Positions 11,763 to 43,835 of a stretch of 64,000 nt of DNA are shown here, in pieces. Position 1 is the first letter of the stretch, and the number at the start of each line of letters is the position of its first letter. The position numbers were made by a program, and so were the translations under genes. A model generated the notes under the pieces. It had not been told where the DNA came from and ran no database searches. It saw only the letters and a list, made by a program, of their open reading frames with translations. The DNA lies in assembly GCA_016296065.1 (NCBI GenBank), contig JAEDKA010000002.1, positions 39,493 through 103,492 of the forward strand, given 5' to 3'. The stretch is from Kiritimatiellia bacterium. Lineage in GTDB: Bacteria; Verrucomicrobiota; Kiritimatiellia; RFP12; UBA1067.

Positions 11763-11775
11763 CTGCCGGGGGGCG

Positions 11776-21406: not shown

Positions 21407-21484
<78 letters not shown>

Positions 21485-21916: not shown

Positions 21917-21946
21917 AAATGAGATGATTTCCAAAAGGCACATATC

Positions 21947-23757: not shown

Positions 23758-23798
23758 TAGAATTGGCGGCGTAAACCAAACAGGAAAGGAACACGCTG

Positions 23799-25792: not shown

Positions 25793-25821
25793 CTGGGGGA
25801 AGCGGCGTCTCGCCGCTTCTG
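25793..25821. repeat. REP-like hairpin GACTGGGGGAAGCGGCGTCTCGCCGCTTC (second copy at 11774)
   Basis: identical 29-mer at two loci; 9-bp perfect stem. Confidence 0.45.
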
Positions 25822-26452
25822 GCACTCTGCGCCTCTGCGTTAAACATGAAACATCAAACTTCAAACATCAAACATCTGTACGCTCTACACGGCTAAACCT
25901 CAACCTCCCGATTTTCACAATGCCAACACGGGAGGGTCCAAATATGCTATACAACAAGTAATCGCAAACCAAGGAGACCCAAAGGAATCGACCTGAAACC
26001 ATCGCCAAGCCGACCGTGCGCGAGGTGATGGAGGAGTTCACTCGAATCCCGCTCATCGACGGCAAGACGTTCTGGGAGCTGGAGAACGAACTCGAGTGGG
26101 TGTAGCGGCATCTCCCGGCACTCTCATTTATATGCGGCAAATCCGCCGCTTGCAAAAGTAAACGTGGGTTTGAAAAGGTAAACGTTGGTTTGGTATCGTG
26201 AAGTACGGTTACATTTTCAAAAGTGGTCGCCATGCACGTGCCTGGCGTGCAAAAGCGCGGCCTGAGAGGCGGCTGCGCGGCGTTTGCGCACGCTTGGCCG
26301 GGATTTGCTACAATAGCCTCCCCTACCCACGACGCCTGGAAAGTTTCCGGCTTGCCGACTGGCGTCAAGGGAACATCCCCATGGAGGGGCTGGGCCTCCC
26401 GACGGAGGCTCAGTTTATTTCTCGTGCTTCAGTGCCTTTTTCGTTCTGTCCT

Positions 26453-27595: not shown

Positions 27596-27632
27596 GCCGC
27601 AGTTGGTGTCGCAGACGTGCGTGCGCCTGCAT

Positions 27633-27821
27633 TCACCGTACCACCTGACACGTCGAGTTCGTCTCCTTGAAGCCCTTGTTCGAGTCGACCCTCCTGTTCT
27701 TGATCTCGTTTGTTATGGTCTGTGGCGGCCTCTTCACGTAGGCTGCGATCTCGGGGATCGTCCACCCGCGCTTGAGCCCATCCTCTATTCCTTCCCGTTC
27801 GACTATGGTCATCTGTGCCAT
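27633..27821 (-). CDS. IS30-family transposase N-terminal HTH ORF; reading frame differs from the DDE ORF (frameshifted or disrupted)
   Basis: TIVEREGIEDGLKRGWTIPEIAAYVKRPPQTITNEIKNRR matches the IS30 HTH_38; 37-nt gap and a +1 frame offset to the downstream ORF. Confidence 0.6.
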   Translation of the reverse strand: MAQMTIVEREGIEDGLKRGWTIPEIAAYVKRPPQTITNEIKNRRVDSNKGFKETNSTCQVVR

Positions 27822-27899
27822 GTCAGTATCCTTTCTGATGTGGGCATCCCAGTCTGGCGACATGCCCGGCCATCGTGCCAAGCCGGGAAGTATAGCGAA

Positions 27900-28082
27900 T
27901 TTGCAGAACTAAACGAGGGTCATCCCCAAGGGGATGATAGCTGGGAGATATTATGCTCTCCATCAATCATATGCAAGGAGAATCAATGTCCTTTGAAGAA
28001 CTAAACGTTTCCAAAAACCATGTTTACTTTTCAAACCACAGACAGCTCTTTACAAAGGTGGGGATATTCCAGGTCTCACATC
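27900..28082 (+). mobile_element. IS4-family element terminal remnant
   Basis: shares ccaaaaacc…caaaggtggggatattccag with the tail of the IS4-type transposase fragment at 42540-42597. Confidence 0.4.
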
Positions 28083-28331
28083 AGCCGCGATTTTTGCTAT
28101 AATATTGTGCAGACGGTACAAGAAGATCTTGCTGTCGTCTCAGACCAGCTTCCGAAAACTACGACATTCTGAAGTTGCCAATAAACGGTTTGCGAGGTGC
28201 AACACATTTGGATGCGCCTTGTCGTGTGTTTATTGGCGGCTGTCGTAGGCCTTCGGAAGATGCACGGCATGGCGTGTCCTTTATATAAACTTAAAGGACG
28301 CGTCCTCTCGGGTGCGTTGGAAAGTCATAAG

Positions 28332-29291
28332 ATGGACAAGATGCAACCAGATGCGTCGAAAATTTCGATAGACGACAACCTTGCTAAGATTAAGTTGTTC
28401 TTGCGTGAGGTCATTCTAGAACCACGCAGGAAAATGCATAAATGGTCTATAATAACAAATCAAACGCCAAATCTTAAGATTGGGTATCCTGGACAACATC
28501 TTGCATCCCTAATTCTTGGAATGAAGGGGACAGGTACTGGTGCTCGAGGAGACGACATCGTTGACGGAACTGAAGTTAAGTCTTGCAGCCGTATCGATCA
28601 ACTTGATAAATGCAAGAAATGCAACGGCAACGTGTTGCGATCACAGAAAAATTGTCCAACATGTGGGTCTTCGGAAATCAAGCGGAACGATGATTCTAAG
28701 TGGTTGATAGCTATTCGAAGTGAAAGTGAACTTGAAATGTATCTTCGTAGAATTCCGAGGATGTTACTTATCATTTCTGATTATCCCGGCTTTGATTACA
28801 ACGACTTCTCATCCATGCGAATTAGAGCATACGAAATCTGGAACCAGTCATCCAGGGCGGCTGGTTTTCGTAATATTCTTACCCACTACTTTAATAACAT
28901 CTTTCTTGAGCATATCAAGAAGAACCCCAAGGCTACTCCTGCCCCTTACAATTTTTGGCCGGACTCTTTCGCATTTTACATGTGTAACCCGATCAAGATC
29001 TTTGAATCAATAATTACCGACATTGACGGCGACGATCCTGGAATTTCAATAACGCACTACATTGAGCCAAACAGGGATCGTAGTTCTCTCGCAAGCGAAT
29101 CAATGCCATCGTCCCTCCTTGTAGAGGAGGAAAAAGAATGCCTTCGTGCTAAGGGTGTTGATTTCTGCGTGGACGGTACAATTGATGAAACAATGAGAGT
29201 CTTTTTGCCGATACGCCTTGGCAAAGCGGTTTCTCACATGCGAAAATACCAGCGCAAGACAGGGCGTTCGACTTCACCCAAGCGGAAGTAG
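28332..29291 (+). CDS. putative Type II restriction endonuclease (PD-(D/E)XK-like)
   Basis: low-GC gene convergent with, and overlapping the 3' end of, the methyltransferase; GDDIVDGTEVKS resembles D…E.K; start moved to MDKMQ at 28332. Confidence 0.5.
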   Translation: MDKMQPDASKISIDDNLAKIKLFLREVILEPRRKMHKWSIITNQTPNLKIGYPGQHLASLILGMKGTGTGARGDDIVDGTEVKSCSRIDQLDKCKKCNGNVLRSQKNCPTCGSSEIKRNDDSKWLIAIRSESELEMYLRRIPRMLLIISDYPGFDYNDFSSMRIRAYEIWNQSSRAAGFRNILTHYFNNIFLEHIKKNPKATPAPYNFWPDSFAFYMCNPIKIFESIITDIDGDDPGISITHYIEPNRDRSSLASESMPSSLLVEEEKECLRAKGVDFCVDGTIDETMRVFLPIRLGKAVSHMRKYQRKTGRSTSPKRK

Positions 29292-30452
29292 ATCAGTTAC
29301 TTCGCTCGAATAGCGCTTTTTAATTGCCTTAATATATTGCTCGTCCATCTCAATTGTGAACGACTCACGATTGAGATGCTCAGCTGAAATCATTGTGGCT
29401 CCACTTCCGCCAAAAGGGTCAAGTACTTTGTCGCCAGGATTAGACGATGCCTTGATAAGGCGTTCAATCAATTTAATAGGTTTCTGGGTTGGGTGATATC
29501 GCTTCTCGCTATAAAAATCAATATCGGTCCACACGTCGCTATACCCCATTAAAGGATTGAAAGTCTGAACGATTTTATCGTAGGGGAAATTGAAATCAAG
29601 AATATCTTGAAGTTTGGCCCAGATTTCTCTGGTTGGGAATTGTTCACAAATATTCTTTCCTGTGTATATTGACCACATTCCTCCGCCATTTGACTTAACA
29701 CCTAGACGTTCATTAATTTCTTTTGATGTCAGCCCAAGTGCCTTTTGTCGCTCTTTTAGCAAATTTCTGGAGAATTCAATGTTGCTCTTTGTCAAGAATA
29801 AGATACTCTCTGTAACGCACGGGAACATCTTGTAGTTCTTGGTTGCTCTGCCCGCAACGGCTTTTATCCCCTTGTCAACTATTATCTGCTGGCGAAGGGA
29901 GAAGCCAATGTCTCGTAATGTTGGCAAGAGCAGGGCAAGCATCCTGAAATATCCAAAGAGATAGAAGGTTCCACCAATGCGCAATTTTTTATATACATCT
30001 GTCATCCACTGCTTCGACCATTCAATATAATCTTCTTCTGTCCTCCATTGGTAATCCCATTTTTCTCCAATCACTTTCCAATATGGAGGATCGGCGATAA
30101 CTAGATCCATTGTGGGAATTTCTTTACACTTCAAGACTTTAAGGCAATCTCCTGCATAAAGAGTGTGGCGACCTAACCTTGAAGTATGAAGTTCAAATGG
30201 CGACGAATCGTTGATAGATGGAGAGGCAATAGAGATTTGCTGATCTTTTTTAAGACGTGTACGCTTGCTATGAATGGTTTGATCGCTTTGTGTATCTTGT
30301 TTGATAGCATTGTCAGCGATAACTAGCTCTGGCAATGTGCTTGCAACACCCAATGCTACATTCTTGCAAAATGACCTTCTGCTGAGACTTTTATTTCCCG
30401 AAGGCCCGATTCGTTTATTGCTTTTAATTGTTTCTAGATTTGAATTAGACAT
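29274..30452 (-). CDS. DNA methyltransferase, beta-class N6-adenine/N4-cytosine (DPPY before FGGSG)
   Basis: IADPPYW (motif IV) followed by DPFGGSGAT (motif I); low GC. Confidence 0.85.
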   Translation of the reverse strand: MSNSNLETIKSNKRIGPSGNKSLSRRSFCKNVALGVASTLPELVIADNAIKQDTQSDQTIHSKRTRLKKDQQISIASPSINDSSPFELHTSRLGRHTLYAGDCLKVLKCKEIPTMDLVIADPPYWKVIGEKWDYQWRTEEDYIEWSKQWMTDVYKKLRIGGTFYLFGYFRMLALLLPTLRDIGFSLRQQIIVDKGIKAVAGRATKNYKMFPCVTESILFLTKSNIEFSRNLLKERQKALGLTSKEINERLGVKSNGGGMWSIYTGKNICEQFPTREIWAKLQDILDFNFPYDKIVQTFNPLMGYSDVWTDIDFYSEKRYHPTQKPIKLIERLIKASSNPGDKVLDPFGGSGATMISAEHLNRESFTIEMDEQYIKAIKKRYSSEVTDLLPLG

Positions 30453-30473
30453 GCTAAGACCTTGTTTGAGCTA

Positions 30474-30674
30474 CTATTTTACGATGTCAACAATGTCTCC
30501 AATATTGCAATTCATTACCGTGCATATACGCTTAAGAACGGACATGCTTACATCGTCTCCGCGCGTCATTTTCGCAATGGTAAATGATGATATGCCGGTC
30601 GCATGTCGGAGATCGGTCTTGTTCATGTCCTTGTCAATTAGCAGCTTCCACAGCTTTTTATATGAAACACTCAT
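30474..30674 (-). CDS. HTH XRE-family controller (C) protein of the R-M system
   Basis: 66 aa; helix-turn-helix LRHATGISSFTIAKMTRGDDVSMSVLKRI; 21 bp upstream of the MTase on the same strand. Confidence 0.6.
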   Translation of the reverse strand: MSVSYKKLWKLLIDKDMNKTDLRHATGISSFTIAKMTRGDDVSMSVLKRICTVMNCNIGDIVDIVK

Positions 30675-30926
30675 TTGCTACTCTTGTCTTATGCATATAA
30701 GATGATTTGTGGTTATTATAACAAAAAAACGGCTGAATCACAATAGGGGTTGCAATCATTTCCAAATTTGATATTTGTACAAACTAATGCAATGTTTGGA
30801 GATGCTAACGTCTAGTTTGTATTGGGGGTCAGCGTTATTCTTCGCGAATCTCCGCGCATCCTTGAAGAACTTCTGTTTGATTCAATCACAAGTGCGACGA
30901 CATAAGATTTGGTATAATGCACAGCA

Positions 30927-31853
30927 ATGGTAAAAAGTTGGCTATCGGCAAGTGTTGCTATCGTGATTTGGGGCGTGACGTTCGCCTCGACGCGGGTGCT
31001 ACTGGAGGAGTTCTCGGCGCTTGAGATCAACATCGTGCGGTTCGCCCTTGCGTGGGTGGCGCTCGCATGCGCGGCAAAAGTGCCGCGGAAGGGCGGGGTG
31101 TGCGCGGCTCCGTGGTGGCTGTTCGCGGCGATGGGCTTCACGGGCGTGTTCGCCTACCAGTTCCTCGAGAACTGCGCGATCTACTATACGAACGCGAGCA
31201 ACGTCGCGATACTCGTCTCGTTCGGGCCGGTCGTTACGGCCATAATGGCGCGGGCGCTGACAGCAGACCGCTCGCTTTCGCCGCGGCTCATCTTCGGGTC
31301 GCTAGTGGCGGTTGTTGGCGTCGCGTTCGTCGCACTGAACGGCGTCGTCAACTTTCAGCTGCGTCCGCTTGGCGACGCGATGGCGCTCTGCGCGATGGTA
31401 AGTTGGGGCATCTACTCCGTCCTCATCGAGAAGGCGAACCGACTTGGCGTGGAGCCGATTGTAGCCGTCAGGAAGTCGTTCGGCTGGGCGCTACTTATGA
31501 TGCTTCCGTTGGCTGTTTGGGGCGTTACGCCTTCCGGATTTGTCGCGCTCGATGGATCGTATTCCGTCACTATTGACGCCGACGCGAACCTTGACCGCTT
31601 TGCCTCGTTCTGGAATTGGGTCAACCTGGGCTTTCTCGGCGTTCTGGCGTCCGCTGCATGCTTCGTCCTCTGGAGTCGCGCGTGCAGGGTCATCGGCATG
31701 GTGCGGACAACGATTGGCCTTTATCTCACGCCAGTTGTCGGCGTGGCTTTTGCGGCGTTGTTCCTGAAGGAGCGGCTTACTTGGCTTTCGGTCGCCGGCG
31801 GAGTTCTTATTCTCGGCGGCGTGGCGATCGCGAACATGAGAAGGGAGGCGTAG
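30927..31853 (+). CDS. EamA/DMT-family transporter
   Basis: ten predicted TM segments; two EamA-like halves; promoter gatttggtataatgc. Confidence 0.8.
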   Translation: MVKSWLSASVAIVIWGVTFASTRVLLEEFSALEINIVRFALAWVALACAAKVPRKGGVCAAPWWLFAAMGFTGVFAYQFLENCAIYYTNASNVAILVSFGPVVTAIMARALTADRSLSPRLIFGSLVAVVGVAFVALNGVVNFQLRPLGDAMALCAMVSWGIYSVLIEKANRLGVEPIVAVRKSFGWALLMMLPLAVWGVTPSGFVALDGSYSVTIDADANLDRFASFWNWVNLGFLGVLASAACFVLWSRACRVIGMVRTTIGLYLTPVVGVAFAALFLKERLTWLSVAGGVLILGGVAIANMRREA

Positions 31854-32309: not shown

Positions 32310-32450
32310 ATGGCGATGCCGCAGAGAGACGATACAATAGAGGCGATCAAGCGATTGGACGCGTTACTTGAGTATGCCGTCATGCATGGTGACGCGGCAG
32401 AGGCCGAGCGCATCCGCGCGGAGCTTCGCAAATTGACGGACGATATCTGA
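32310..32450 (+). CDS. small hypothetical protein (46 aa)
   Basis: ORF below the ORF-track size cutoff; RBS gagtagcggaa; promoter gatttggtacaatat at 32228. Confidence 0.25.
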   Translation: MAMPQRDDTIEAIKRLDALLEYAVMHGDAAEAERIRAELRKLTDDI

Positions 32451-32476
32451 TCTCCGCGGCGGAAGTGCCGCGCATT

Positions 32477-32532
32477 TTGTCGCTCGGCTGGCGACATGGG
32501 GCGGGGCGGGATTTGGTAGAATAGGCGGCGAA
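32477..32532 (+). promoter_or_regulatory. island promoter-operator cassette A (palindrome TTGTCGCTCGGCTGGCGACA + G-rich spacer + TTTGGTAGAATAGGCGGCGAAA)
   Basis: one of six near-identical cassettes; -10 TAGAAT at 32516; the right half-site overlaps a -35-like TGGCGACA. Confidence 0.6.
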
Positions 32533-32559
32533 ATATCAATGACAGGAAAGGAGAAGAGC

Positions 32560-33915
32560 ATGACGGCATACTTTGAAATTCGAACATCCGACGGCAATCA
32601 ATATGTCTGGCCGGAACCGCTCGGAGACAAGGGCGAGGCGCGGCTTGTAATAGAGAAGGTCGGCCACTCGGTGGAATGCGGGCTGCTGTTTGCGTACACA
32701 GACAACTATCCGTACATTGACCTTGAGTTTAACTCTGGCACTGTCCACTATGTCATAAATCATCGGCATTCGCGTCTCTATTGGGATGGATGCGTATGGG
32801 CGCGCAATTCTATAGAAGATGTCCGCTACTCACTGCCTGACCGCGTGCGGCTTTGTGTCAATGGCCGATATTTTCAGGATGTTGACTATGAGGAATTTGC
32901 GCGGGTTGTTCGGAATACGAAATCCGGTTTCGGAGAGCCGCAATACAGGTGTTCCGTGGTGATAACCGATCCGAGAGTGCGCTTTTTGGCGCTAGCTTCC
33001 CTTGCCTATTTTGACGTCAATGGTGGAAGGGCGAAATGTGAGCTTTACAAGCGAATGAACCCGACTTGCCAGGAGGCATTGGCGGCATTGCGGAGGTTTG
33101 GCCTTGACGTTGGACTCGGTCCCAACAAGGCGGATGAGCGGACCGTGTACGGACATCTTGAAGATTTCAGTGCCGCAAGCATGAAGGAGACCCCGGCTCA
33201 AATTCTTGGTCGAACAATACCTCTTAGAGTTGAATGTGAAGGTCTTTTGGAGCCTGGTAATCTTGGGTCTGGCACTTTGACTTTGAGTCTCTCGAATGAA
33301 CAGACGGGTGTAGTGCTGCGAGGAGTTGAGATGGTTGGGGGAATCCGCAGGAATTATGCATTTAGAGTCCCGACAGAGTGGGCTCGGAAAAGTGTCGTGA
33401 ACATAATAGAGAAGATTTCGGTTTCACCCACGATGCCGGCAGATCGTGAGGGATGCACAAGCCAAAATGTCTTAAGGATATTCAAAGGAGACAGCGCGTT
33501 TTCGCTATCATGGGGTGGGGTTGTCGGTGGTACTTGGCATCCGCTTGTGCGAATGGCCAGGAAGCTCAGGCTCGTCTACGACATGCTGAAAGAGGATGCT
33601 GCAGAGGGTGTTGAAGAGTCCGATATACGCCTCATAGGCGAGTTTAAGATTGCGCATGCTCACGTGAAAGACCAGAATGAGGCGTTTGCGGTGTTCCCTG
33701 CGGGGAAGCGGGTATTTCTGCGTTGCGGTGAGGACGGGGCGAATGTAGTGTTCGTGCAGGGCAGTGAAGATGGAGATGTTCTCGGTGAGGTTCCTACCGT
33801 GTTTGGCGATGTTCACAGCGCACTGCTAAACGGTTGTCACAGTGTCACTGCAAGAATCGAATCGCCATGCAGCCATCAGGGTAAACCTTCGGCTTGCGTT
33901 GTGGTTGTCGAGTGA
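32560..33915 (+). CDS. hypothetical protein (452 aa), cassette-driven
   Basis: RBS aggaaaggagaag; no recognisable domain by eye. Confidence 0.6.
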   Translation: MTAYFEIRTSDGNQYVWPEPLGDKGEARLVIEKVGHSVECGLLFAYTDNYPYIDLEFNSGTVHYVINHRHSRLYWDGCVWARNSIEDVRYSLPDRVRLCVNGRYFQDVDYEEFARVVRNTKSGFGEPQYRCSVVITDPRVRFLALASLAYFDVNGGRAKCELYKRMNPTCQEALAALRRFGLDVGLGPNKADERTVYGHLEDFSAASMKETPAQILGRTIPLRVECEGLLEPGNLGSGTLTLSLSNEQTGVVLRGVEMVGGIRRNYAFRVPTEWARKSVVNIIEKISVSPTMPADREGCTSQNVLRIFKGDSAFSLSWGGVVGGTWHPLVRMARKLRLVYDMLKEDAAEGVEESDIRLIGEFKIAHAHVKDQNEAFAVFPAGKRVFLRCGEDGANVVFVQGSEDGDVLGEVPTVFGDVHSALLNGCHSVTARIESPCSHQGKPSACVVVVE

Positions 33916-34147
33916 TGAAATTCAACAGACCAAGGTACTTTGGCGATAATGGCCGGGGTTTGGTAGAATAGGCGGTGTATGGCGGAGTCCATGCCAGGGA
34001 TGGTTCTCGCAGCGCTGTTCCACGATTGCTGCAAGAGGGGGATGCCTGGCGATAGGGGATAATTGGGGGCCTGGCACGGGGTGTGCTAATAGTCTGGTGT
34101 GTGCGCGGCGGTTCGCGTGCGAAGGAAAACGAAAAGGAGGTTCGGCT

Positions 34148-35479
34148 ATGAGGCAGGTTAATGTTAAGATCGGTGACATCACCGAGGAAACGGTTGATGC
34201 AATTGTGAATGCGGCGAACCGCAGCATGCTTGGCGGCGGCGGGGTGGATGGCGCTATACACAGAGCAGCGGGGCCGCAGCTCAAGTCCGAATGTGAAAAG
34301 TATCCACCAGATGCGCATGGGTATCGTCTAAAGACAGGAGAGGCGAAGATTACGATTGGATGCAATCTTTCTGCGAAGTTCGTGATACATACGGCGGGGC
34401 CGGACTGCAGTGAGGTTCGTGATGCTGCTGAGCAGGATCGGCTGCTGACGGCATCGTGGCGCAACTCCCTTGCCATTGTCGCCGAGCGTGGATTGAAGTC
34501 CGTCGCGTTCCCGTCAATTTCGACCGGAATCTATGGTTTCCCTAAGGAACGGGCGGCAAAGATCGCCGCTGCCGAAGTAGCCAAGTTCCTCGCCGACTAT
34601 CCCGATGTCGAAGTGCGGATATGCCTGCTGGGTCACGATGCCGAGTCGACGAAACGGCTTTACGAGGATGCGTTTGCCCATTCAATGCCCACGTCATTTC
34701 CTACCATTTCCGTTTCCAGACGAGCCCGGTTCCCGGATGAACTTTCATACGATGTCATTGCAGGTGAGTTTAGGCAGACAGCGAACGGTGCAACGTGTCC
34801 GCGTCATGGGTATATCGATGGCGTTCACTACATTGCGAAGTGCGAGACATTCCAGCAGTTGGTGAATCGCCCCAAGACCACTTCGGAAAAACATGTTCAC
34901 AACGAGTTCGTCGCGGACGGGGTGATTCGCGGCATGGGGTTTAATGTCCCGGAGAGTAGAGAGTATAGGACGCGAGAGAATAGAGTGCTCGTTCGCCTTG
35001 CCAAGTTCATCGCGCCAACGAGTCCTCTCTGCAATGCCTGGAATGCTGCAGATAGTGAAGCGAAAGAAGCGATACGTCGACAGGTGGTTGCGGCATATCC
35101 ACTTCTGCATCTGATTGCCGGATTTGATACGTTCCAGAACGACAATGTCATTGTAACAGAGGATGGGAAACTGTGGTTTGTTGACAACGGTGCATCGTTT
35201 GGGTGGAGCGCTATGGGAGCGTACGACAAGTACTACAAATACAGTGGGAGAACAGATCCAGACGATTCCCAATATGGCTTTCTTTCGTTGCGTAATCATC
35301 CAGGGCAAAAGTTGCTTCAGAGAGTTCTGTCGGGTGTAGCGGATGCGGAACTGTGGGCTGGGGCGGCTAAGCTTGACGTCGACAGGTTCGTCTCGCTGCT
35401 TCCTGCAGACGAATATGACGTATCATCCATTCGCACCTATGCAGAGACTCTCGTAAGAGAGGCAAAAAAGCATTGTTGA
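34148..35479 (+). CDS. MacroD-type macro domain fused to a C-terminal PI3K/PI4K-like (atypical kinase-like) domain
   Basis: N-terminus: VDAIVNAAN, GGGGVDGAIHRAAGP, VIHTAGP, AFPSISTGIYGFP (MacroD catalytic motifs). C-terminus: LIAGFDTFQNDNVIVTEDGKLWFVDNGASFG aligns with the PI3K catalytic and activation loops (GDRHxxN…DFG). Confidence 0.75.
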   Translation: MRQVNVKIGDITEETVDAIVNAANRSMLGGGGVDGAIHRAAGPQLKSECEKYPPDAHGYRLKTGEAKITIGCNLSAKFVIHTAGPDCSEVRDAAEQDRLLTASWRNSLAIVAERGLKSVAFPSISTGIYGFPKERAAKIAAAEVAKFLADYPDVEVRICLLGHDAESTKRLYEDAFAHSMPTSFPTISVSRRARFPDELSYDVIAGEFRQTANGATCPRHGYIDGVHYIAKCETFQQLVNRPKTTSEKHVHNEFVADGVIRGMGFNVPESREYRTRENRVLVRLAKFIAPTSPLCNAWNAADSEAKEAIRRQVVAAYPLLHLIAGFDTFQNDNVIVTEDGKLWFVDNGASFGWSAMGAYDKYYKYSGRTDPDDSQYGFLSLRNHPGQKLLQRVLSGVADAELWAGAAKLDVDRFVSLLPADEYDVSSIRTYAETLVREAKKHC

Positions 35480-35658
35480 TTGAATGATGTATGTTGTTCC
35501 ACTGGCGAGATGTGGAAGGGTCGACCACCGGCCGGCCAGGATTGTGGCGCGCTCAGTGATCGCGCAACGGCGTGGCACAATGAGGTGGAGCTTCCAGCTC
35601 CTCCCGTCCGGGCACGTGGCGCGGCGAGACGCCGCACCTCCTTGTCTGTCGCATGAAA

Positions 35659-35714
35659 TGTCGCTCCGCTTGCGACATGGGGTGCGGCGGGATTTGGTAG
35701 AATAGGCGGTGAAA
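35659..35714 (+). promoter_or_regulatory. island promoter-operator cassette C
   Basis: TGTCGCTCCGCTTGCGACA + tggggtgcggcgggat + TTGGTAGAATAGGCGGTGAAAG; 15 nt upstream of the CYTH gene ATG. Confidence 0.6.
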
Positions 35715-35728
35715 GAAAGGAGAGTCAG

Positions 35729-36205
35729 ATGGCGCTTGAGATAGAGAGGAAGTTCCTTGTGAAGGGCGACGGATGGCGCGGGCTGGCGCAGCCGGAGCTG
35801 ATGAAGCAGGGGTATGTGCCGACCGAGAACCACGTGACGGTGCGAGTGCGGACGGCCGGGGTGAAGGCGTGGATAACGTTGAAGACGCCCGCGAAGAATC
35901 TCGTCCGTCAGGAGTTCGAGTACGAGATTCCGATCGCGGACGCGGAGGCCATGCTGAAGTCGATGTGCGGAAATGTCGTGGAGAAGAAGCGATACAGGAT
36001 TCCGGCTGCGGAGCACAGGCTCGCCTGGGAAGTCGACGAGTTCCTCGGCGCAAACGCGCCGCTCGTCACGGCGGAGATTGAGCTGCCAAGCGCGGAGTTT
36101 GCCGTCCAGCTGCCGGAATGGGTTGGCCGCGAGGTCACAGAGGAAAACCGCTTTAAGAACAACCGCCTAGCGGAGCGGCCTTATTCGGCTTGGTCGAATG
36201 TCTGA
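35729..36205 (+). CDS. CYTH-domain protein (CyaB/ThTPase triphosphate-tunnel family)
   Basis: N-terminal EIERKFLV motif diagnostic of CYTH; 158 aa. Confidence 0.75.
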   Translation: MALEIERKFLVKGDGWRGLAQPELMKQGYVPTENHVTVRVRTAGVKAWITLKTPAKNLVRQEFEYEIPIADAEAMLKSMCGNVVEKKRYRIPAAEHRLAWEVDEFLGANAPLVTAEIELPSAEFAVQLPEWVGREVTEENRFKNNRLAERPYSAWSNV

Positions 36206-36291
36206 AATTTCGCTTTGGCGGCGCGGAGATCTGAGTCTCCTGGCAATTGGAGCCTACGAGCAGATTTTCTCCGCGCGCCTTTTTCTTGCAC

Positions 36292-36350
36292 TTGTCGCTC
36301 CGTTGGCGACATGGGGTGGGATGGGTTTTGGTAGAATAGGCGGCGAAAAG
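36292..36350 (+). promoter_or_regulatory. island promoter-operator cassette D (orphan: no ORF downstream)
   Basis: TGTCGCTCCGTTGGCGACA + tggggtgggatgggtt + TTGGTAGAATAGGCGGCGAAAAG. Confidence 0.6.
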
Positions 36351-36445
36351 AGTCGAAAACGAGTAGCCTTTTCGCGGGTGTAATCCGTCACTTCGACTGC
36401 CCCCGAGTGCGAACCGCCATGCGGTCGGGGGCTTTCTATTTGGCG
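36343..36445 (+). ncRNA. candidate ~100-nt small RNA transcribed from cassette D and ended by an intrinsic terminator
   Basis: predicted TSS after TAGAAT; internal hairpin GCGAAAAG…CTTTTCGC; terminator GCCCCCGAGTG…TCGGGGGC + TTTCTATTT at 36398-36445; longest ORF is 20 aa. Confidence 0.35.
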
Positions 36446-36584
36446 GACTATGTGCTCCCTGTGTCTCGCGCGAGATTAGTCTGAATCCAATTCTTCGAGC
36501 GCCGATTCGGCTTCCTCCTGCTCGCGAAGACGCTCCTCGTCCTCTGTGGTCCATTCCGTCTCTGCATTGATAGGAGGCCGGACG

Positions 36585-36752
36585 CTACTTCTCCGGGGTC
36601 ACTCTCATAGCGCGTTGCCACTCGCCGGAGTCGTCCCAGCCGTCCGCCGCCTTGCGGATCCGCTTTGCCCTTGCCTCGATCGAGCGCTTCCGCTCCGCCT
36701 CCGTCCATGTCGGAGGATTCCAGTGATAGGATGTAGTTCCAGAGTTGCTCAT
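36585..36752 (-). CDS. small hypothetical protein (55 aa, Trp-rich)
   Basis: MSNSGTTSYHWNPPTWTEAERKRSIEARAKRIRKAADGWDDSGEWQRAMRVTPEK; RBS gaagggaa; below the ORF-track size cutoff. Confidence 0.3.
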   Translation of the reverse strand: MSNSGTTSYHWNPPTWTEAERKRSIEARAKRIRKAADGWDDSGEWQRAMRVTPEK

Positions 36753-36961
36753 GTTGCGTTCCCTTCGAGGCTGCGAACTCTTCTCGGGTGAAGCGCGGAT
36801 GCCTCAGTTCGCCAGTCTCAAGCCCGCGCATCACCGCCTTCAGCTTTTCCTGGTTCACGTTGGGTAGTGTAGCATTTTTCCCTTGAGCAGTCAACGAGTG
36901 CAGGGCGGTTTTCCGGGCTTCGCGTTCATTTCTTCGGAAACTACGATAGCGGGTCGGGAAA

Positions 36962-37020
36962 TGTCGCTCCGCTGGCGACATGGGGAAGGATGGGGTTTGG
37001 TAGAATAGGCGGCGAAAGGA
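36962..37020 (+). promoter_or_regulatory. island promoter-operator cassette E
   Basis: TGTCGCTCCGCTGGCGACA + tggggaaggatggggt + TTGGTAGAATAGGCGGCGAAAGG. Confidence 0.6.
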
Positions 37021-37033
37021 AAGGACTGAAAAC

Positions 37034-37699
37034 ATGAAACAGGAACTGATCGACAAATTCAATGCCGTGACCGACGAGACGGTCGAGGACTACTGCAAGG
37101 CGAAGGACGGCGGATTCTGCTGGCTGTGGTTCCTTGAGCGGGCGCGGCTGAAGATCATGGAGAGCGGATACCTTCCGCAGCAGGGAACGGCGCTGATCGA
37201 TGCTCGCTACAACAATTCGGCGGATGCGGTCCTGAACGGACTGCTCTGCGCGGCGCGTTCGGTGGAGAGCCCGGCGATCCAGGCGACCAAGGTCCAGCCG
37301 TGGGAAGGCGGGGACCTGGAGCGGTGGAAGCAGGGGCTGCTGGCGTTTTCCGCGATGATGTTCGACGCCGGATGCGTCGCCGCGTACACGCGCGGATACG
37401 AAGACGGGTTCGATCCGGTGGAGGCGAACGCCCCCGCGGCGATTTTCGGCGACGTGGGGTTTACGGGGCTACGCGTCAAGGCGTCGGCATTCCTCCAGGA
37501 GGTCGGCGGGGAGCAGGCGAAGGATCTTGCAGGGGAAATCGGAGACTGCGCGTGCTCGCACCTCTATGCCGACCGGCATATCGTCGAGTGCGCGTTCAAG
37601 GAGGGTGCGGCACTGCGCGAGGCGTATTTTCGCGGGGTCTGCAAGGCGGCATACGTTGTCGGCGCGCTTTTTGCCGAGTTCGTCGCCGCCGGGCGCTGA
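37034..37699 (+). CDS. hypothetical protein (221 aa), cassette-driven
   Basis: ATG 14 nt after the cassette; no recognisable domain. Confidence 0.55.
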   Translation: MKQELIDKFNAVTDETVEDYCKAKDGGFCWLWFLERARLKIMESGYLPQQGTALIDARYNNSADAVLNGLLCAARSVESPAIQATKVQPWEGGDLERWKQGLLAFSAMMFDAGCVAAYTRGYEDGFDPVEANAPAAIFGDVGFTGLRVKASAFLQEVGGEQAKDLAGEIGDCACSHLYADRHIVECAFKEGAALREAYFRGVCKAAYVVGALFAEFVAAGR

Positions 37700-37806
37700 A
37701 CGATGGTAATTCTTTTTGCATTCGCCACGAGCGGAAAGGCTTCCGCCGGGTGCCGCCGATACGGCATGACTGATTGGGGAACGGCCGCCCCCAGGCGAAT
37801 GCATTT

Positions 37807-37865
37807 TGTCGCTCCGCCGGCGACAAGGAGATGGACGGGGTGTGGTAGAATTTGCGGTGGAAAGA
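37807..37865 (+). promoter_or_regulatory. island promoter-operator cassette F
   Basis: TGTCGCTCCGCCGGCGACA + aggagatggacggggtg + TGGTAGAATTTGCGGTGGAAAG. Confidence 0.55.
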
Positions 37866-37877
37866 TGAGGTCTTGGC

Positions 37878-38357
37878 ATGGAAGAGGAAGTGATAACATT
37901 TCTTTCGGACGAGCGCACGGAAATCGGGCGCATCGTTAAGTCGCAGGCTTTGGGCTTTGGCTTCGACTGGCAGTCCAGTGAGGGAGCGGTGCTGAATATT
38001 GACAGTGCTGTCGTTGCGGTCGGAATGGATGAAGCGAGCGCCGAGGCGATATTGAGTAGGACTGTGTCCCCGCAGTTCGGAGAGCAGGAGTCGTGCGCCA
38101 CCTACGCACTCGACGCGTCGCGTCCGATTATAGACGAGGATGGCGGCGAATGTCCTTATGTCGGCGAGTCCCTGGCGGACTGGATACTCTGCGAGCACTG
38201 TCTCTATGGACGCGGCCGGATAACAGTTCTTGGTGACGACGGAATGCTCCCTGCCGAATTGCAATTGATCGAGCATTTGTTCGAGAAGCTTATGGTGTCG
38301 CTCATCAAGAGAGATGGATCGCCTCGCGCCGAGGCGACGCTGACTACAGAATGTTGA
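37878..38357 (+). CDS. hypothetical protein (159 aa), cassette-driven
   Basis: acidic protein; no recognisable domain. Confidence 0.55.
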   Translation: MEEEVITFLSDERTEIGRIVKSQALGFGFDWQSSEGAVLNIDSAVVAVGMDEASAEAILSRTVSPQFGEQESCATYALDASRPIIDEDGGECPYVGESLADWILCEHCLYGRGRITVLGDDGMLPAELQLIEHLFEKLMVSLIKRDGSPRAEATLTTEC

Positions 38358-38362
38358 GGAAA

Positions 38363-38420
38363 TGTCGCTCCGCCGGCGACAAGGGGAGGGGCGGGTTTTG
38401 GTAGAATAGGCGGCGTAAAA
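38363..38420 (+). promoter_or_regulatory. island promoter-operator cassette G
   Basis: TGTCGCTCCGCCGGCGACA + aggggaggggcgggtt + TTGGTAGAATAGGCGGCGTAAAAC. Confidence 0.6.
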
Positions 38421-38440
38421 CAAAACGAAAGGAGATTGGC

Positions 38441-39082
38441 ATGAAGCATGCAACGAAATACGGCGAGGCGGCGCAGATAACCGGCGGCCAGGTCGCCGAA
38501 TCCGGCGACGAAGACGCGCGTCGGGCGTGGGCGGATCAGAAACGCGACTGCGCGGAGGCGGAGTACTTTCTCGGCGAGTGCCATGACTTCGGCGAGCACG
38601 GCCTTTCCAAGGACGATGCGCTCGCGCGCTACTGGTACGAGCGAGCGGCGCGGCATGGCGATGTGTGCGCGATGACGAATCTCGGCTACATGTTCGCGCA
38701 CGGCAACGGAGTCGAGGTGGACGGCGAGAAGTCGGTCGGGTGGTACGAGCTCGCGTCGGCGAACGGCAGCTATCTTGCAATGGGAAATCTTGCCTATTTC
38801 CATCTCACGGGCATATTCGTCGGCAAGGCGGATCCCGTGAAGGCCGTGCGGTTGTACGAGAAGGTCGTCAAGATGGAGCCGGAGTGCGAGTGCTACAAGT
38901 ACGACCTCGGGACCTGCTACGAGAACGGTGTGGGTACGGCGGTCGACATGGAGCGAGCGATTGCGCTCTATCGTGACGCGGCGCGGCTCGGGTCAGGACT
39001 TGCAAAGAAGGCGCTCAAGCGCCTTGGTGTAGACCGGAATGTTGAGTGCGGAACAGGGAAAGCGGAAGGAGTCGCGGTATGA
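38441..39082 (+). CDS. Sel1-repeat protein, cassette-driven
   Basis: Sel1 repeats (YWYERAARHGDVCAMTNLGYMFAHGNGVEVD…). Confidence 0.7.
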   Translation: MKHATKYGEAAQITGGQVAESGDEDARRAWADQKRDCAEAEYFLGECHDFGEHGLSKDDALARYWYERAARHGDVCAMTNLGYMFAHGNGVEVDGEKSVGWYELASANGSYLAMGNLAYFHLTGIFVGKADPVKAVRLYEKVVKMEPECECYKYDLGTCYENGVGTAVDMERAIALYRDAARLGSGLAKKALKRLGVDRNVECGTGKAEGVAV

Positions 39083-39891
39083 ACGAACTTGGAATGAACG
39101 AGGAATGGACGAAGGCGAAGATGCGCGAGGGATATCTCCGCGAGAAGTGCGCCGAAGAGGTGGAGGAGTACATGCACCTCACGACATGCGTCGGGCCGAA
39201 CTTGAAGACGCAGTACATGCTGTGCATCGGACAGCTTGAGTACCGCGTCTTCCAGCTCAAGACGGACGTCGCGCGTTGGCAGCGGCGCTTCACGCTGAGG
39301 CAGCAGGCGCTGAACCGGGGCGAGACGCCGAACCTGGTCCAGATCGAGGCGCAGTTGGACGAGGAGTTCCAGGACTACCTTCGCCAGGTCAAGGAACATC
39401 TTGCGGCGATCAAGGCCGCCGCGCAGCATGCGTCCATGGCAAGATTAAGCGACGAGGAGACGTCGGCGATCCGCGTTAACTACTTGAAGGCCGTCAAGCG
39501 GCTGCATCCGGACATCAACCCCGGTTTGCCCAAGGGCGCGGCGGAGCTGTGGAACAAGATACAGGAGGCCTATGCGAACGGAGACTGGAAGGAGCTTGAG
39601 TTTCTCGTTGCGATGGTCGACGGTGTGCTCGGTGGCGCGGCGACCGTTCCCGAAGACGGCGATGCCCTTGAGGCGTTGAAGAAGTCCATCGCGCGCCTCG
39701 AAAAGAGTCTTGAGGAGCTTAAGGAGCGGAGGAAGAATCTTGAACAACAGGAGCCGTTCGTCTGGAAGGACTTTCTGGGCGACGAGGAAGAGGTGGCCTT
39801 GCGGCAGGCGGTCCTTAACAAGAAGATCGCGGAGCTCGAGGAGGTCGTTTCGGAATACGAATCGCTTTGGAGCGCGAAGGAGGTGGCGTAG
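39079..39891 (+). CDS. J-domain (DnaJ-like HPD) containing protein
   Basis: YLKAVKRLHPDINPGLPKGAAELWNKIQEAYANGDW: a J-domain with an HPD motif in the central region; start overlaps the Sel1 stop (ATGA). Confidence 0.65.
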   Translation: MNELGMNEEWTKAKMREGYLREKCAEEVEEYMHLTTCVGPNLKTQYMLCIGQLEYRVFQLKTDVARWQRRFTLRQQALNRGETPNLVQIEAQLDEEFQDYLRQVKEHLAAIKAAAQHASMARLSDEETSAIRVNYLKAVKRLHPDINPGLPKGAAELWNKIQEAYANGDWKELEFLVAMVDGVLGGAATVPEDGDALEALKKSIARLEKSLEELKERRKNLEQQEPFVWKDFLGDEEEVALRQAVLNKKIAELEEVVSEYESLWSAKEVA

Positions 39892-39892
39892 A

Positions 39893-40285
39893 ATGGCAGG
39901 GGAACTTGTGATCAGCGACAGGAACTGGCTCGACGTCCGAAATTCGGCGTCGTCGGTTCCGATGCCGTTTTCGCACGAGGTATTCCTCAAGGAGTGCCAC
40001 GTCGCGGGGACGATGCACGTTGACGACGTTCTGTACAAGACGAAGTCCGTCGACGTCGGCGCTCCGCTCGTGCTGAAGCGCGAGCCGGAGAACGGTTACG
40101 ACGAGCTGGCGATCCGCGTTGAGACCGCCGCGGGCGAGGGCATCGGGTGGGTGCCTAAAAAGCACAACGACGTCCTTGCGCGGCTGATGGACGCCGGAAA
40201 GCTCCTCGTCGCGAAGGTCGTCCATAAGGAACTCGAGGACCACTGGCTGAACATGAGAATCGAGATATTCCTGAAGGACATATGA
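39893..40285 (+). CDS. HIRAN-domain protein
   Basis: LVLKREPENGYDELAIRVETAAGEGIGWVPKKHNDVLARLMDAG matches the HIRAN consensus (L..EP.NP.D.NAI.V…G..IGY…); 1 nt after the J-domain gene stop. Confidence 0.6.
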   Translation: MAGELVISDRNWLDVRNSASSVPMPFSHEVFLKECHVAGTMHVDDVLYKTKSVDVGAPLVLKREPENGYDELAIRVETAAGEGIGWVPKKHNDVLARLMDAGKLLVAKVVHKELEDHWLNMRIEIFLKDI

Positions 40286-40329
40286 CATGGTAGAATTGTC
40301 GTCAAAAGGAGGAGAAAACGAGGAGGATT

Positions 40330-40953
40330 ATGAACAAGCGCATTAAACAGCTGACGATCGCCGACAGGGTGCCTGGATTTACGAGATACGCAGAGTTCTT
40401 CGACCGGCTTGGTGGTGCTGGCTCTCCCATCCGTCCGTCGCGAGAGGAGAAGGAGCGCCTTGTCGAGCGGCTGTCGCAAATCAGAGGTCGGCCGCGTTAC
40501 CTTTTCGACGGTGTGCGCGAGGACATCCTGTCGACTGCGGAGGTCAGGGAATGCCGGCGATTCCCCGACGGACGGCTGTACGTCCGCTACGAAGTGGAAG
40601 CAATGCTGACCGACGGGAGTTGGGACGGTCCGCATGAGCTGCTTACGGCATGGGGCACCGACGGGCGGCTTGACGCCTATACCTTCTTGCATGGCACCGG
40701 ACGTGGCACGGAGGTCGCGGCGACATTGCACTTGGCCTGTAATGTCGATGGTTATGGCGACGAATACGTGAGCGACGTGGGCAGCGTCCTTGCGTTCGCC
40801 GAAGAGATGGACATCGGCGATGGGGTTGTCGTCGGGAACGACGAGTGCTGCGGTGAGTTCATGATGGCGACGAAGGAGAAGTGCGGCATCCGGCTCTGTT
40901 GGCAGGTCTTCGCATCCCCGTGGATCTTCTTCGCGTTCGTGCGTCGGGCTTGA
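40330..40953 (+). CDS. hypothetical protein (207 aa)
   Basis: promoter TGGTAGAATTGTCGTCAAAAGG at 40283 (cassette-like, no palindrome). Confidence 0.5.
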   Translation: MNKRIKQLTIADRVPGFTRYAEFFDRLGGAGSPIRPSREEKERLVERLSQIRGRPRYLFDGVREDILSTAEVRECRRFPDGRLYVRYEVEAMLTDGSWDGPHELLTAWGTDGRLDAYTFLHGTGRGTEVAATLHLACNVDGYGDEYVSDVGSVLAFAEEMDIGDGVVVGNDECCGEFMMATKEKCGIRLCWQVFASPWIFFAFVRRA

Positions 40954-41026
40954 GCGTGCGTCGGAGGCGATCCGCACCTACTTCGACAAGGGGATCCTTG
41001 GCATACAGGATTTTTGCGAATGGGAG

Positions 41027-41356
41027 ATGGCGGAGGAATACGATGAACAATCCGGGCTCGTGACATTCCACATTTCGCGCGAACTGCGGCGCGACCTTCT
41101 GCGTGCAATGCGCAAAGGCGACAGGATTGCAGAGCAGACGCTCCGCGACGCGGGGGTGAAAAATTCTGGCGCAATGGACGAACAGGAGGTCCGCGTTCCG
41201 TATGCTCCGTATCGAAAGATGCTGTCCACGCTTCGGGAAGCGCTTGACGATATCAAGCCAAGAGAAGAGTATCGTCGGCTCCAACTTTATCTCGCGCTTC
41301 GTGATGATGAGCTGGCGCAGAACAATCTAGGTAATATATACAGAAAATCAAAATAG
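41027..41356 (+). CDS. hypothetical protein (109 aa)
   Basis: ORF only; start uncertain. Confidence 0.35.
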   Translation: MAEEYDEQSGLVTFHISRELRRDLLRAMRKGDRIAEQTLRDAGVKNSGAMDEQEVRVPYAPYRKMLSTLREALDDIKPREEYRRLQLYLALRDDELAQNNLGNIYRKSK

Positions 41357-41551
41357 CGGTTAGCCGTGAGTACGGACTTTCCGAAAACTGGGAGGAGATT
41401 GATTTGACATGTGGCTGGCGAATGGTATTAGCATCGCCTCGGACGTAAAGGGCAATGGGTCGGGAAACCGGCATAGCTCATGCAAGAGATTCGCCAGCCA
41501 CTTTTATCTGACAGTAATGAAATGGTGGCGCACTAACAGGAGAAGTGCACG

Positions 41552-43821: not shown

Positions 43822-43835
43822 GGTGGCTCCAGTCT

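Follow-up and report, generated by a model that had tools for sequence, protein, structure and literature searches.

Defense islands are known to have dedicated small regulators, among them the WYL regulators of the BrxR/CapW type. At class II promoters, such as those of CRP at galP1, lambda CI at OR2/PRM, and the C-proteins of restriction-modification (R-M) systems, a dimer site near −41.5/−42 is combined with a weak or absent −35 and an extended −10, and both lambda CI and the C-proteins are XRE-type helix-turn-helix (HTH) factors with autoregulation. The exchangeable effector locus of Pseudomonas syringae reportedly carries Hrp-box promoters. In enteropathogenic Escherichia coli (EPEC), the island-encoded factor RptR is autoregulated and acts at one promoter with three direct repeats (PMC12255303). 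NrtR factors bind 21-bp palindromic operators whose core is GT-N7-AC (Rodionov 2008, PMC2330246). Systems centered on an ADP-ribosylglycohydrolase (ARG) have been predicted to reverse ADP-ribosylation imposed by invaders; besides the ARG itself, they include a factor of the Nudix or WYL type, a phosphatase, chaperones, and variable modules linked to Macro, restriction endonuclease (REase), or HIRAN domains, and their content varies from one close genome to another (Iyer, Burroughs, Anantharaman & Aravind 2022, PMC9503650, section 3.8). Here, we describe an array of near-identical operator-promoter units, each with a 19-bp palindrome, in a variable island of a Kiritimatiellae chromosome segment (rumen-type). 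The stretch of 64 kb that was analyzed is called the window, and coordinates given without a contig label are positions in it.

The array is real and coherent, and it is neither an integron, nor an immunity array, nor a promoter type used throughout the genome. We consider it reasonably probable that the units form the regulon of a single factor encoded in the island, that this factor is an XRE-type HTH protein of 188 aa, and that the genes under its control counteract ADP-ribosylation.

The repeated operator-promoter unit

The palindrome TGTCGC-N7-GCGACA occurs seven times in the window, always on the plus strand and always within the island (starts at 23719, 32478, 35659, 36293, 36962, 37807, and 38363), against 0.51 copies expected by shuffling (0 of 100 shuffles reached 7). 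None of the seven lies in the ~43 kb of core genes that flank the island. Repeat finding returned the same seven copies as one 64-nt family, 69 to 86% identical to the reference copy, and the mean pairwise identity of the 58-nt unit cores is 81.6%. The distance from the palindrome to T(G/A)GTAGAAT is exactly 17 nt in all seven. A unit thus consists of the palindrome, 17 mostly G-rich nucleotides, T(G/A)GTAGAAT, and a GC-rich stretch (AGGCGGCG in most); the −10 core of full units and remnants alike is TGGTAGAAT. A Shine-Dalgarno sequence and start codon follow 16 to 35 nt past the −10 in six of the seven units, the exception being the copy at 36293, which has no open reading frame (ORF). The center of the palindrome exists in five variants among the window units. 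A first-pass annotation, made from the letters of the window, had described six ~58-bp units upstream of genes; its repeats stand, as do the paralogous promoter-operator modules that it saw in front of heterogeneous genes, but the full units number seven, with 23719 added, and the copy at 36293 drives no ORF. Of two relatives that it called operator-less, at 23745 and 40283, the former belongs to 23715-23778 and has a perfect palindrome; the latter does lack one, keeping only a −10 at 40288, while the true palindrome-less relative lies at 33951-33979. Similarly, the G-patterned spacer and AGGCGGCGAAA, assigned by the annotation to each unit, occur in most copies, but the copy at 23719 and its orthologue in contig L011 deviate.

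Unit 1 (23715..23778; palindrome 23719-23737, 17-nt spacer, TAGTAGAAT) overlaps the final 13 codons and the stop codon of an ARG gene and heads an operon encoding a Sel1-repeat protein (345 aa) and the HTH protein (188 aa). Unit 2 (32474..32537), which follows a terminator hairpin (32455-32472) and T-run, drives a gene for a 451-aa protein, and unit 3 (35655..35718), with an element resembling repetitive extragenic palindromes (REP-like) upstream at 35615-35650, drives a CYTH gene. Unit 4 (36289..36352) has no ORF; the hairpin (GGCGCGGAGA...TCTCCGCGCGCC) and T-run upstream of it were seen by eye and are absent from the terminator scan. Units 5 (36958..37021) and 6 (37803..37866) drive genes for proteins of 221 and 159 aa, respectively, and unit 7 (38359..38422), which begins 6 nt past the preceding stop codon, drives a Sel1(213 aa)-J-domain-HIRAN operon. 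A hairpin and T-run that can be read as a terminator stand directly before the units at 32478, 36293, and 37807, of which the scan lists only the first; since such hairpins and T-runs precede several units, most cassettes appear to be promoter-gene(-terminator) modules. The palindrome itself was also considered as an intrinsic terminator and was rejected by eye, having a 6-bp stem and no U-run after it. Two remnants, likewise on the plus strand, complete the set. The palindrome-less remnant (33951..33979), consisting of the end of a G-rich spacer, TGGTAGAAT, and AGGCGGTG, lies upstream of the leader of a Macro-kinase gene, and the orthologous position in L037-L040 is occupied by a full unit, TGTCGCC-CGGCT-GGCGACA with a 15-nt spacer. 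The −10-only remnant (40288..40296) is TGGTAGAAT with neither palindrome nor spacer, in front of a broken gene of a 448-aa family; its counterpart in L010 is a decayed full unit after the HIRAN gene.

We distinguished the parts that are specific to the unit from those of ordinary promoters. The motif TGGTAnAAT has 26 matches in the window against 4.2 expected, precedes tRNA-Pro, tRNA-Gln, mutS, the fusA-like gene for elongation factor G (EF-G), and other core genes, and is the general extended −10 promoter of this organism; TTTGGTAGAAT, previously listed as a feature of the unit, is that general promoter. Annotators should be aware that TGGTAnAAT alone, in this clade, marks a standard promoter. 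Housekeeping promoters in the window have an AT-rich discriminator and no palindrome, whereas the units have GGCGGCG, so the unit-specific parts are the palindrome, its fixed distance from the −10, and the GC-rich discriminator; the G-rich spacer is less strictly kept than these. If transcription starts ~7 nt past TAGAAT, the palindrome would span about −51 to −33, with its center at about −42, and no −35 hexamer at 16- to 19-nt spacing could be read in the units. We regard the units as putative sigma-70-type extended −10 promoters specialized by the palindrome (A)TGTCGC-N7-GCGACA(T) and the GC-rich discriminator, in which the palindrome would be the binding site of one dimeric transcription factor.

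Comparison with a sister lineage (contigs L014/L015/L017) delimits what is conserved. Its units read TGTCGCC-N5-GGCGACA (7-bp arms), exactly 17 nt, TG(G/A)TAGAAT, and a GC-rich discriminator; the palindrome centers differ within the single array of L014 (AGATT, GGCTT, AAGCC, and AGACT). Since the arms and the 17-nt spacing are kept between window and sister units while center and spacer have diverged, we predict that a protein binds there symmetrically, at a constant place in the promoter. Judged by its sites, the set would then qualify as one regulon, with the same palindrome at the same promoter position, conserved while neighboring bases diverge.

The strict unit pattern matched one of 185,579 species genomes, a metagenome-assembled genome (MAG) of Kiritimatiellae from goat jejunum with one copy, as well as 11 contigs of the metagenome collection and no viral contig. 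These counts indicate a feature of a narrow clade rather than a widespread promoter class or a phage element. A ubiquitous promoter type found genome-wide, which the first-pass annotation had named as the outcome that would speak against its proposal, is not what was found, given this distribution and the restriction of the palindromes to the island within the window. Ten viral matches to a relaxed pattern were considered as a phage counterpart and rejected, being at about chance level (~1-2 expected, a rough estimate with an assumed collection size); seven of the ten lie inside one head-morphogenesis ORF family, and an eighth (L030) is also in coding sequence.

The arrangement of the units varies among contigs of the window lineage, whose alignable parts are 85-98% identical. 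L012 runs from RadC through unit-280aa-344aa-HD, unit-CYTH, unit-93aa, and unit-159aa to, farther on, unit-leader-145aa, while L010 reads unit-DUF6717-448aa-Sel1-J-HIRAN-decayed unit. In L009, the Macro gene and unit-CYTH are separated by two additional genes (135 aa, HD), at a place where the window has a REP-like element only. In L037, a SNF2/methylase/helicase/422-aa block is followed by a full unit before the Macro gene, and in L001/L006/L008 the unit abuts an EamA-type frame. In the last three, read in the orientation of the unit (L001 ~4880, L006 ~4360, L008 ~3070), the first possible start is a TTG ~5-8 nt past the presumed transcription start, and the frame may represent either a near-leaderless mRNA or a truncated relic.

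Mosaicism extends into the units themselves. The unit of L010/L004 is 100% identical to window positions 36958-37017, its upstream flank matches window positions 35615-35658, and its 5' untranslated region (UTR) is of the 38363 type; in L005, a 23719-type unit is fused to a 38363-type 5' UTR and a DUF6717 gene, and the unit of L007 has a hybrid spacer. Homology between strains often begins exactly at the 5' edge of the palindrome, and the breakpoints inside chimeric units are scattered, which fits homologous recombination or gene conversion and not one crossover point. Outside the fixed parts, identity is 72% among window-lineage units compared with 46% to sister-lineage units. Since likeness within a lineage exceeds likeness between lineages even for orthologous cassettes, the units evolve in concert. 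We propose that the array changes between strains through deletions and insertions and, in addition, through exchange among the ~60-bp units by homologous recombination or gene conversion, and that such exchange would also keep the units alike within a lineage. The L014 array is in addition enclosed between two direct copies of a repeat that measures at least 115 bp (1-115 and 6964-7078; 91% identical), which is absent from the window and has no match in Rfam; it could mark block insertion of the array or an assembly break at the repeat.

The candidate regulator and alternative explanations

The palindrome is most probably bound by the 188-aa protein, whose gene (24833..25399, plus strand) begins within the stop codon (ATGA) of the gene for its Sel1-repeat partner (23799..24836, plus strand; 345 aa with a basic C-terminal tail). 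Only four close clusters of this protein exist in 5.8e9 proteins, and their contigs yield three further lineages, with identities to the window copy of 67% (L014/L015/L017) and 59% (L021). In every lineage recovered, the array ends with the HTH gene or with one gene after it, the arrays adjoin different housekeeping genes (trpS/scpA; purA), and a ~350-aa Sel1 gene precedes the HTH gene as a kept partner in three of four lineages. A full unit heads the HTH operon in two lineages, namely the window and L021, where one window-type unit heads the operon 246aa-J-HIRAN-Sel1-HTH. When 1.84 billion representatives were scanned with HMMER, residues 63-169 matched 5,626 proteins (E<=1e-3, best 1e-25), almost always at their C terminus among the matches listed. 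Eight of 10 sampled members have an N-terminal Macro domain, and in 6 of 10 the matched region also scores HTH_3/HTH_26/HTH_31. A direct sequence search of the 188-aa protein against PDB gave no match, while a profile of the HTH domain gave two weak ones, to the immunity repressor 8bny (E = 0.05) and the XRE protein 3op9 (E = 0.13). By family membership, the C-terminal ~105 aa would be an XRE/Cro-CI-type HTH of what we call the Macro-HTH family, which numbers 5,626 representative clusters and appears to be uncharacterized so far. As a Macro-less member of this large family, the protein is linked by descent to ADP-ribose-binding modules.

Family-based HTH assignment, a distribution that matches that of the unit, and a unit-driven operon in two lineages together make the 188-aa protein the best candidate. 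All four of its close clusters occur in such arrays, although the linkage in L014 is weaker. The first-pass annotation had proposed a single shared regulator and had named this protein as a candidate; the former is still the most economical reading, and the latter remains the best choice after comparison of family, distribution, and operon context. If one factor, binding as a dimer, occupies the palindrome, all unit-headed genes would constitute one regulon concentrated in the variable island, and since the factor is made with its Sel1 partner from unit 1, it would control its own synthesis. We slightly favor activation over repression because class II geometry is matched by the position of the site at −42, the lack of a −35, the extended −10, and the constant distance of 17 nt; the GC-rich discriminator would make open complexes unstable. 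Repression by occlusion is almost equally possible, and island regulators, RptR among them, more commonly work in that way. The inducing signal may be related to ADP-ribose, given the Macro partners of the family and the cargo, and we speculate that the Sel1 protein could be a co-sensor.

Several observations weigh against this interpretation. In L014/L015, 1.8 kb separate the HTH gene from the nearest full unit upstream, the promoter directly in front of the gene has no palindrome, and the Sel1 partner is fragmented; strict autoregulation is accordingly weakened in L014. The protein's own best Pfam match, HTH_31, reaches only E = 0.1, the HTH call coming through family membership, and an AlphaFold2 (AF2) model built from 4 sequences had a predicted local distance difference test (pLDDT) score of 49.6 and was not used. 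The spacing is 15 nt in the L037 type of unit and 10 nt in one L012 copy. The likeness of the units could stem partly from recent common descent instead of selection, and since coverage of the host genome amounts to 64 kb, copies elsewhere in it are possible. PADLOC, moreover, found no known defense system in the cargo, assigning only the HIRAN protein to the candidate PDC-M03B (E = 4.5e-10) and giving a weak LmuB coiled-coil match.

Another protein at the head of the island could in principle bind the palindrome and run the same regulon, responding to ADP-ribose as NrtR repressors do. This NrtR-like Nudix and winged-helix protein (21947..22819, plus strand) matches PF00293 (E = 7e-13) and, below the cutoff, PF21906 (E = 4e-4), a family recorded for many of its close homologues. 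Its gene adjoins the ARG gene and unit 1; NrtR operators are palindromes of ~21 bp (PMC2330246), the length of the unit palindrome with its flanking A/T; and ARG-centric systems are predicted to be under Nudix- or WYL-HTH factors (PMC9503650). Nevertheless, close homologues of it occur widely among Kiritimatiellae (>120 clusters at >=68% identity), and a palindrome-promoter of the unit type is absent from the five of their contexts retrieved (L022-L026), including those in which ARG genes lie beside J/HIRAN/Sel1 genes. The unit has GC-N7-GC in place of the NrtR core GT-N7-AC, which is found instead in the gene's own promoter (21873-21917; TTGTGG-N17-TGATATAAT): the palindrome TGTGT-N7-ACACA that follows there at 21901-21917, unique in the window, includes that core and is probably an autoregulatory operator. 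GCA_016648615.1, finally, has the Nudix gene on one contig and the HTH array on another. We consider binding by the NrtR-like protein improbable. One of the five contexts, L025, has the order NrtR-ARG, AAA_5-VWA, metK, DUF6717, J-like (44.5% identical), HIRAN (63%), a 257-aa gene, and Sel1, with no units. A box common to its promoters was entertained as an NrtR operator that would have indicated regulator displacement; this was rejected, since Rfam identifies it as an S-adenosylmethionine (SAM)-I/IV riboswitch aptamer. The two aptamers, at 6549-6655 and 11661-11769 (48.2 and 40.6 bits; gathering score 41.1), precede the AAA_5-VWA operon and the DUF6717-J-HIRAN-Sel1 operon, with metK between them, which are unusual targets for SAM riboswitches.

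Three further explanations assign the palindrome or the array a different nature, and we regard each as still less probable. The unit might be a mobile promoter-bearing element akin to a miniature inverted-repeat transposable element (MITE) or REP, its palindrome forming a hairpin recognized by a transposase. The unit that abuts the EamA-type frame almost without a leader in L001/L006/L008, a RAYT-like gene fragment upstream of it in L001, and the abundance of another REP-like family in the genome would agree with this. Yet, the single palindrome apart, the unit shows no terminal inverted repeats, and target-site duplications are likewise missing. The window copies are confined to one island and one strand, with none in 43 kb of flanks, and the related MAG has one unit copy only; we think mobility of this kind unlikely. 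A similarly slight chance, if anything a little smaller, attaches to an array of orphan immunity or effector genes, be it for toxin immunity or for secreted eukaryote-like effectors, that share a regulon promoter. Sel1, ankyrin, J-domain, HIRAN, and kinase-like domains are indeed frequent in effectors and immunity proteins, and the array is strain variable and adjoins a tRNA gene. The poly-immunity or polymorphic-toxin island envisaged by the first-pass annotation nonetheless finds no counterpart in a toxin gene of the Rhs/CdiA/WXG type, a secretion-system gene, or a match to a Pfam or NCBIfam immunity family, and enzymatic cargo (ARG, Macro, HD, CYTH) points to nucleotide and ADP-ribose chemistry and not to immunity of the binding type. 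Least probable of all, in our view, is a site-specific recombinase that uses the palindromes as its core sites, the array being an integron-like cassette platform. The arm-center-arm layout (6- to 7-bp inverted arms, 5- to 7-bp asymmetric center) does resemble tyrosine-recombinase cores, cassette order varies between strains, and the frequent onset of homology at the palindrome edge would agree with such a platform. However, neither the island nor those genes of related contigs that were called or scanned contain an integrase or other site-specific recombinase domain, and the centers, which strand exchange would need to be identical, differ within the one array of L014. Breakpoints fall in spacer and discriminator too, some insertions and deletions are not bordered by units (the SLFN deletion between L014 and L015 is one), and recombination would leave the fixed distance to the −10 unexplained. 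The integron-like character originally suggested for the array is thus set aside, the more so as the repeat stands 5' of its gene and carries a promoter.

Cargo genes and the setting of the island

The cargo, all encoded on the plus strand, includes several enzymes and chaperone-like proteins. The ARG/DraG-type gene (22891..23757; PF03747, E = 8e-54) has no linked ADP-ribosyltransferase (ART) or sirtuin, as none of the 30 window ORFs scanned matched the ART or SIR2 families. The protein encoded at 34148..35479 combines a Macro domain (residues 1-~180, by family match) with a protein-kinase-like fold (~180-443, by predicted structure); for the latter half, the AF2 model has a pLDDT of 84.8, and Foldseek returned 196 PDB matches at E<=1e-3, the best 50 of these 196 all being protein kinases. 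Distant homologues of this domain are encoded in a lipopolysaccharide (LPS)-core cluster with glycosyltransferases, APH-type kinases, and HldE (L041 5554-6318) and beside DnaB_C, RmuC, and a Macro protein (L042 1275-2048), contexts which hint that its substrate may be a sugar or nucleotide instead of protein. The remaining cargo comprises a CYTH (triphosphate tunnel) protein of 158 aa (35729..36205); proteins of 451 aa (32560..33915; GC content at third codon positions [GC3] 0.53 compared with ~0.85 in core genes), 221 aa (37034..37699), and 159 aa (37878..38357), none with a family match, the last belonging to a family found also in L007, L012, and L014/L015; and the operon of unit 7, with a Sel1-repeat protein of 213 aa (38441..39082), a J-domain-like coiled-coil protein (39079..39891) that has the HPD motif while scoring below the Pfam cutoff, and a stand-alone HIRAN protein of 130 aa (39893..40285). 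It is followed by a broken gene (40330..41356; fragments of 207 and 109 aa), frameshifted and then cut by an insertion sequence (IS) remnant, which is intact in L010 as a 448-aa protein with C-terminal Sel1.

Family searches thus bear out the Macro, CYTH, Sel1, DnaJ-like, and HIRAN domains read in the first-pass annotation, and structure prediction its kinase-like half of the Macro protein; its ankyrin-type cargo, by contrast, is a chimera of Ank and a DDE-transposase fragment (41552-42481) that has no unit. Its description of the cargo genes as otherwise unrelated was overstated, because the J-domain, HIRAN, 448-aa Sel1, and DUF6717 genes travel together and form plain operons without the unit in L025. 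Since such operons exist there without units, the cargo is an older, partly syntenic functional set and the unit a lineage-specific regulatory overlay. Related arrays contribute an HD_4-like protein related to alarmone hydrolases (L009/L012/L014/L037; weak, E = 0.006; absent from the window), DUF6717, SLFN_AlbA_2 in L015, and RelB and HipBA nearby. R-M or helicase-methylase systems are interleaved with the arrays, as seen in the MamI pair of the window and the SNF2/methylase/helicase block of L037, and together with the variation of the array between close strains they uphold the defense-type setting that had been proposed. Scans of the cargo with PADLOC, PHROGs, and NCBIfam returned almost nothing informative. 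By analogy, the island cargo resembles the predicted ARG-centric anti-ADP-ribosylation systems, and we propose that it would act as a co-induced battery for counter-ADP-ribosylation or defense.

A conserved leader of 100-250 nt, between the unit or unit-like promoter and the gene, precedes some cargo genes (Macro-kinase, SLFN_AlbA_2, and others) and contains a sigma-54-like −24/−12 motif (TGGCAC-N5-[T/G]TGCT). In the Macro-kinase leader it is TGGCACGGGGTGTGCT at 34072..34087 (plus strand); elsewhere, it occurs in L012 (~505-521, ~5099-5115, and ~5783-5799), L037 (~9935), L015 (~2690), and L025 (~11383). It is invariant in four aligned copies of the leader and not enriched in the window. Downstream of unit 4, an orphan structured transcript of ~100 nt ends in a terminator (36343..36445, plus strand; minimum free energy −47.6 kcal/mol, z = −3.79). 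It is kept in L009, faces decayed minus-strand gene fragments at 36448-36960, and corresponds in position to a RelB gene in L014/L015; it may be a small RNA or a relic. An Rfam search of the array at E<=1 gave no match.

The island lies between tRNA-Pro (21407-21483) and ~42.5 kb and is compositionally uneven: GC falls to 41-43% at 28-31 kb in a window of 60.8% GC, and GC3 is 0.53-0.82 in many island genes compared with ~0.85-0.9 in core genes. The flanking genes encode subunits of pyruvate:ferredoxin oxidoreductase (PFOR), an outer-membrane efflux protein, MutS, and EF-G. No repeat of the tRNA-Pro 3' end that could serve as an att site, and no direct repeat bounding the window island, was found. 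A block at 25400..31853 intervenes between unit 1 and the remaining units. It holds, on the minus strand, an HTH_38 protein and a 380-405-aa protein without assigned function, and further a MamI-type restriction endonuclease with a convergent N4/N6 methylase (28197-30452, 41-43% GC) and an EamA transporter. The MamI/methylase block looks like a recent insertion that parted unit 1 from the others. The EamA promoter of the window is a plain TGGTATAAT, while the EamA-type gene of L001/L006/L008 is unit driven.

Other features of the window are recorded for completeness. The REP-like family (GCGGCG-TCTC/AGAC-GCCGC hairpin plus CTCCTTG) forms tandem 83-bp and 51-bp copies in core intergenic regions. 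It is present at 11784-12032, 50226-50382, 25795-25825, and 35615-35650, with single copies adjoining some units, and also upstream of units in L004, L010, and L012. MutS (49158-52286) has all five MutS domains and, in an unusual fusion, a C-terminal staphylococcal-nuclease (SNase) domain. The ORF at 44917-49098 encodes 1393 aa with a SASA/sialate-esterase domain and contains a 12-nt tandem repeat (48132-48251) that specifies a (PD)n acidic linker. Repeats of ~75 nt at the right end of the window (63080-63750) encode a W..P.YY-type motif, and just beyond the island an ORF on the minus strand (43435-43830), read by eye, encodes a putative S24 peptidase (UmuD/LexA C-terminal-like).

Comparison with described systems

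If our interpretation is correct, the locus would be a clean natural case of how a variable, defense-type island is wired, with one small factor acting on many identical operator-promoters and each accessory gene bringing or receiving its own copy. It would provide a first handle on the large Macro-fused XRE HTH family, suggesting that the family reads ADP-ribose-related signals, and a test case for the predicted ARG-centric reversal of phage ADP-ribosylation in the little-studied Kiritimatiellota of rumen and gut. Doubtful, though worth stating, is the further idea that the unit has two jobs, being both the operator-promoter of an infection-responsive switch, in which an XRE factor descended from the Macro-HTH family and its Sel1 partner sense ADP-ribosylation stress, and a portable block of homology by which strains gain, lose, and exchange genes with their promoters through ordinary homologous recombination. 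Were this true, the array would be a recombinase-free functional analogue of an integron for counter-ADP-ribosylation and defense genes.

In function, there is a likeness to ARG-centric systems (PMC9503650), with which the island shares an ARG without an ADP-ribosyltransferase, a Nudix-HTH factor, chaperone-like partners, variable add-ons of the Macro/HIRAN type, a nearby restriction enzyme, content that differs between close genomes, and, in related arrays, an HD phosphatase. Their description includes neither a multicopy promoter-operator unit nor an XRE Macro-HTH factor, their operons being placed under Nudix or WYL factors, and CYTH, the kinase-like fusion, the J-domain, and Sel1 are found in this island and not listed among the ARG-centric components. 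NrtR regulons (PMC2330246) likewise pair a Nudix winged-helix gene with a draG-type gene and have a 21-bp palindromic operator; the unit, however, is without the GT-N7-AC core, and the NrtR-like gene is not distributed as the unit is. RptR islands (PMC12255303) are alike in that an island HTH factor acts on short repeats or palindromes, is autoregulated, and keeps company with R-M and ADP-ribosylation (DarTG) genes. They differ in having one promoter, compared with at least seven here with one palindrome each at a fixed position, and in the family of the factor, whose binding in our case is predicted.

With class II promoters, the unit has in common a site at about −42, no −35, an extended −10, and, in the cases of lambda CI and the C-proteins, a factor that is predicted here to be XRE-type and autoregulated, whereas activation, contact with sigma region 4, and a second, repressing site are features of the known systems. 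The exchangeable effector locus of P. syringae is also a strain-variable array beside a tRNA gene, with a regulon promoter for each gene and mobile-element debris; its Hrp box, unlike the sigma-70-type promoter and operator seen here, is read by an extracytoplasmic function (ECF) sigma factor, and its cargo is secreted, while the present island has no secretion system. Integron arrays resemble it in being unidirectional series of short, heterogeneous, strain-variable genes split by a repeated imperfect palindrome. An attC site, however, measures 57-141 bp and lies 3' of a mostly promoterless cassette, whereas the unit measures 58-64 bp, has a 19-bp palindrome, lies 5' of the ORF, and contains a −10; there is no IntI and no attI or attC, the palindrome center is not conserved in the sister lineage, and breakpoints are scattered. 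Island regulons as such are known. What is new here is an island regulon with unusually many near-identical operator-promoters that double as a substrate for recombination.

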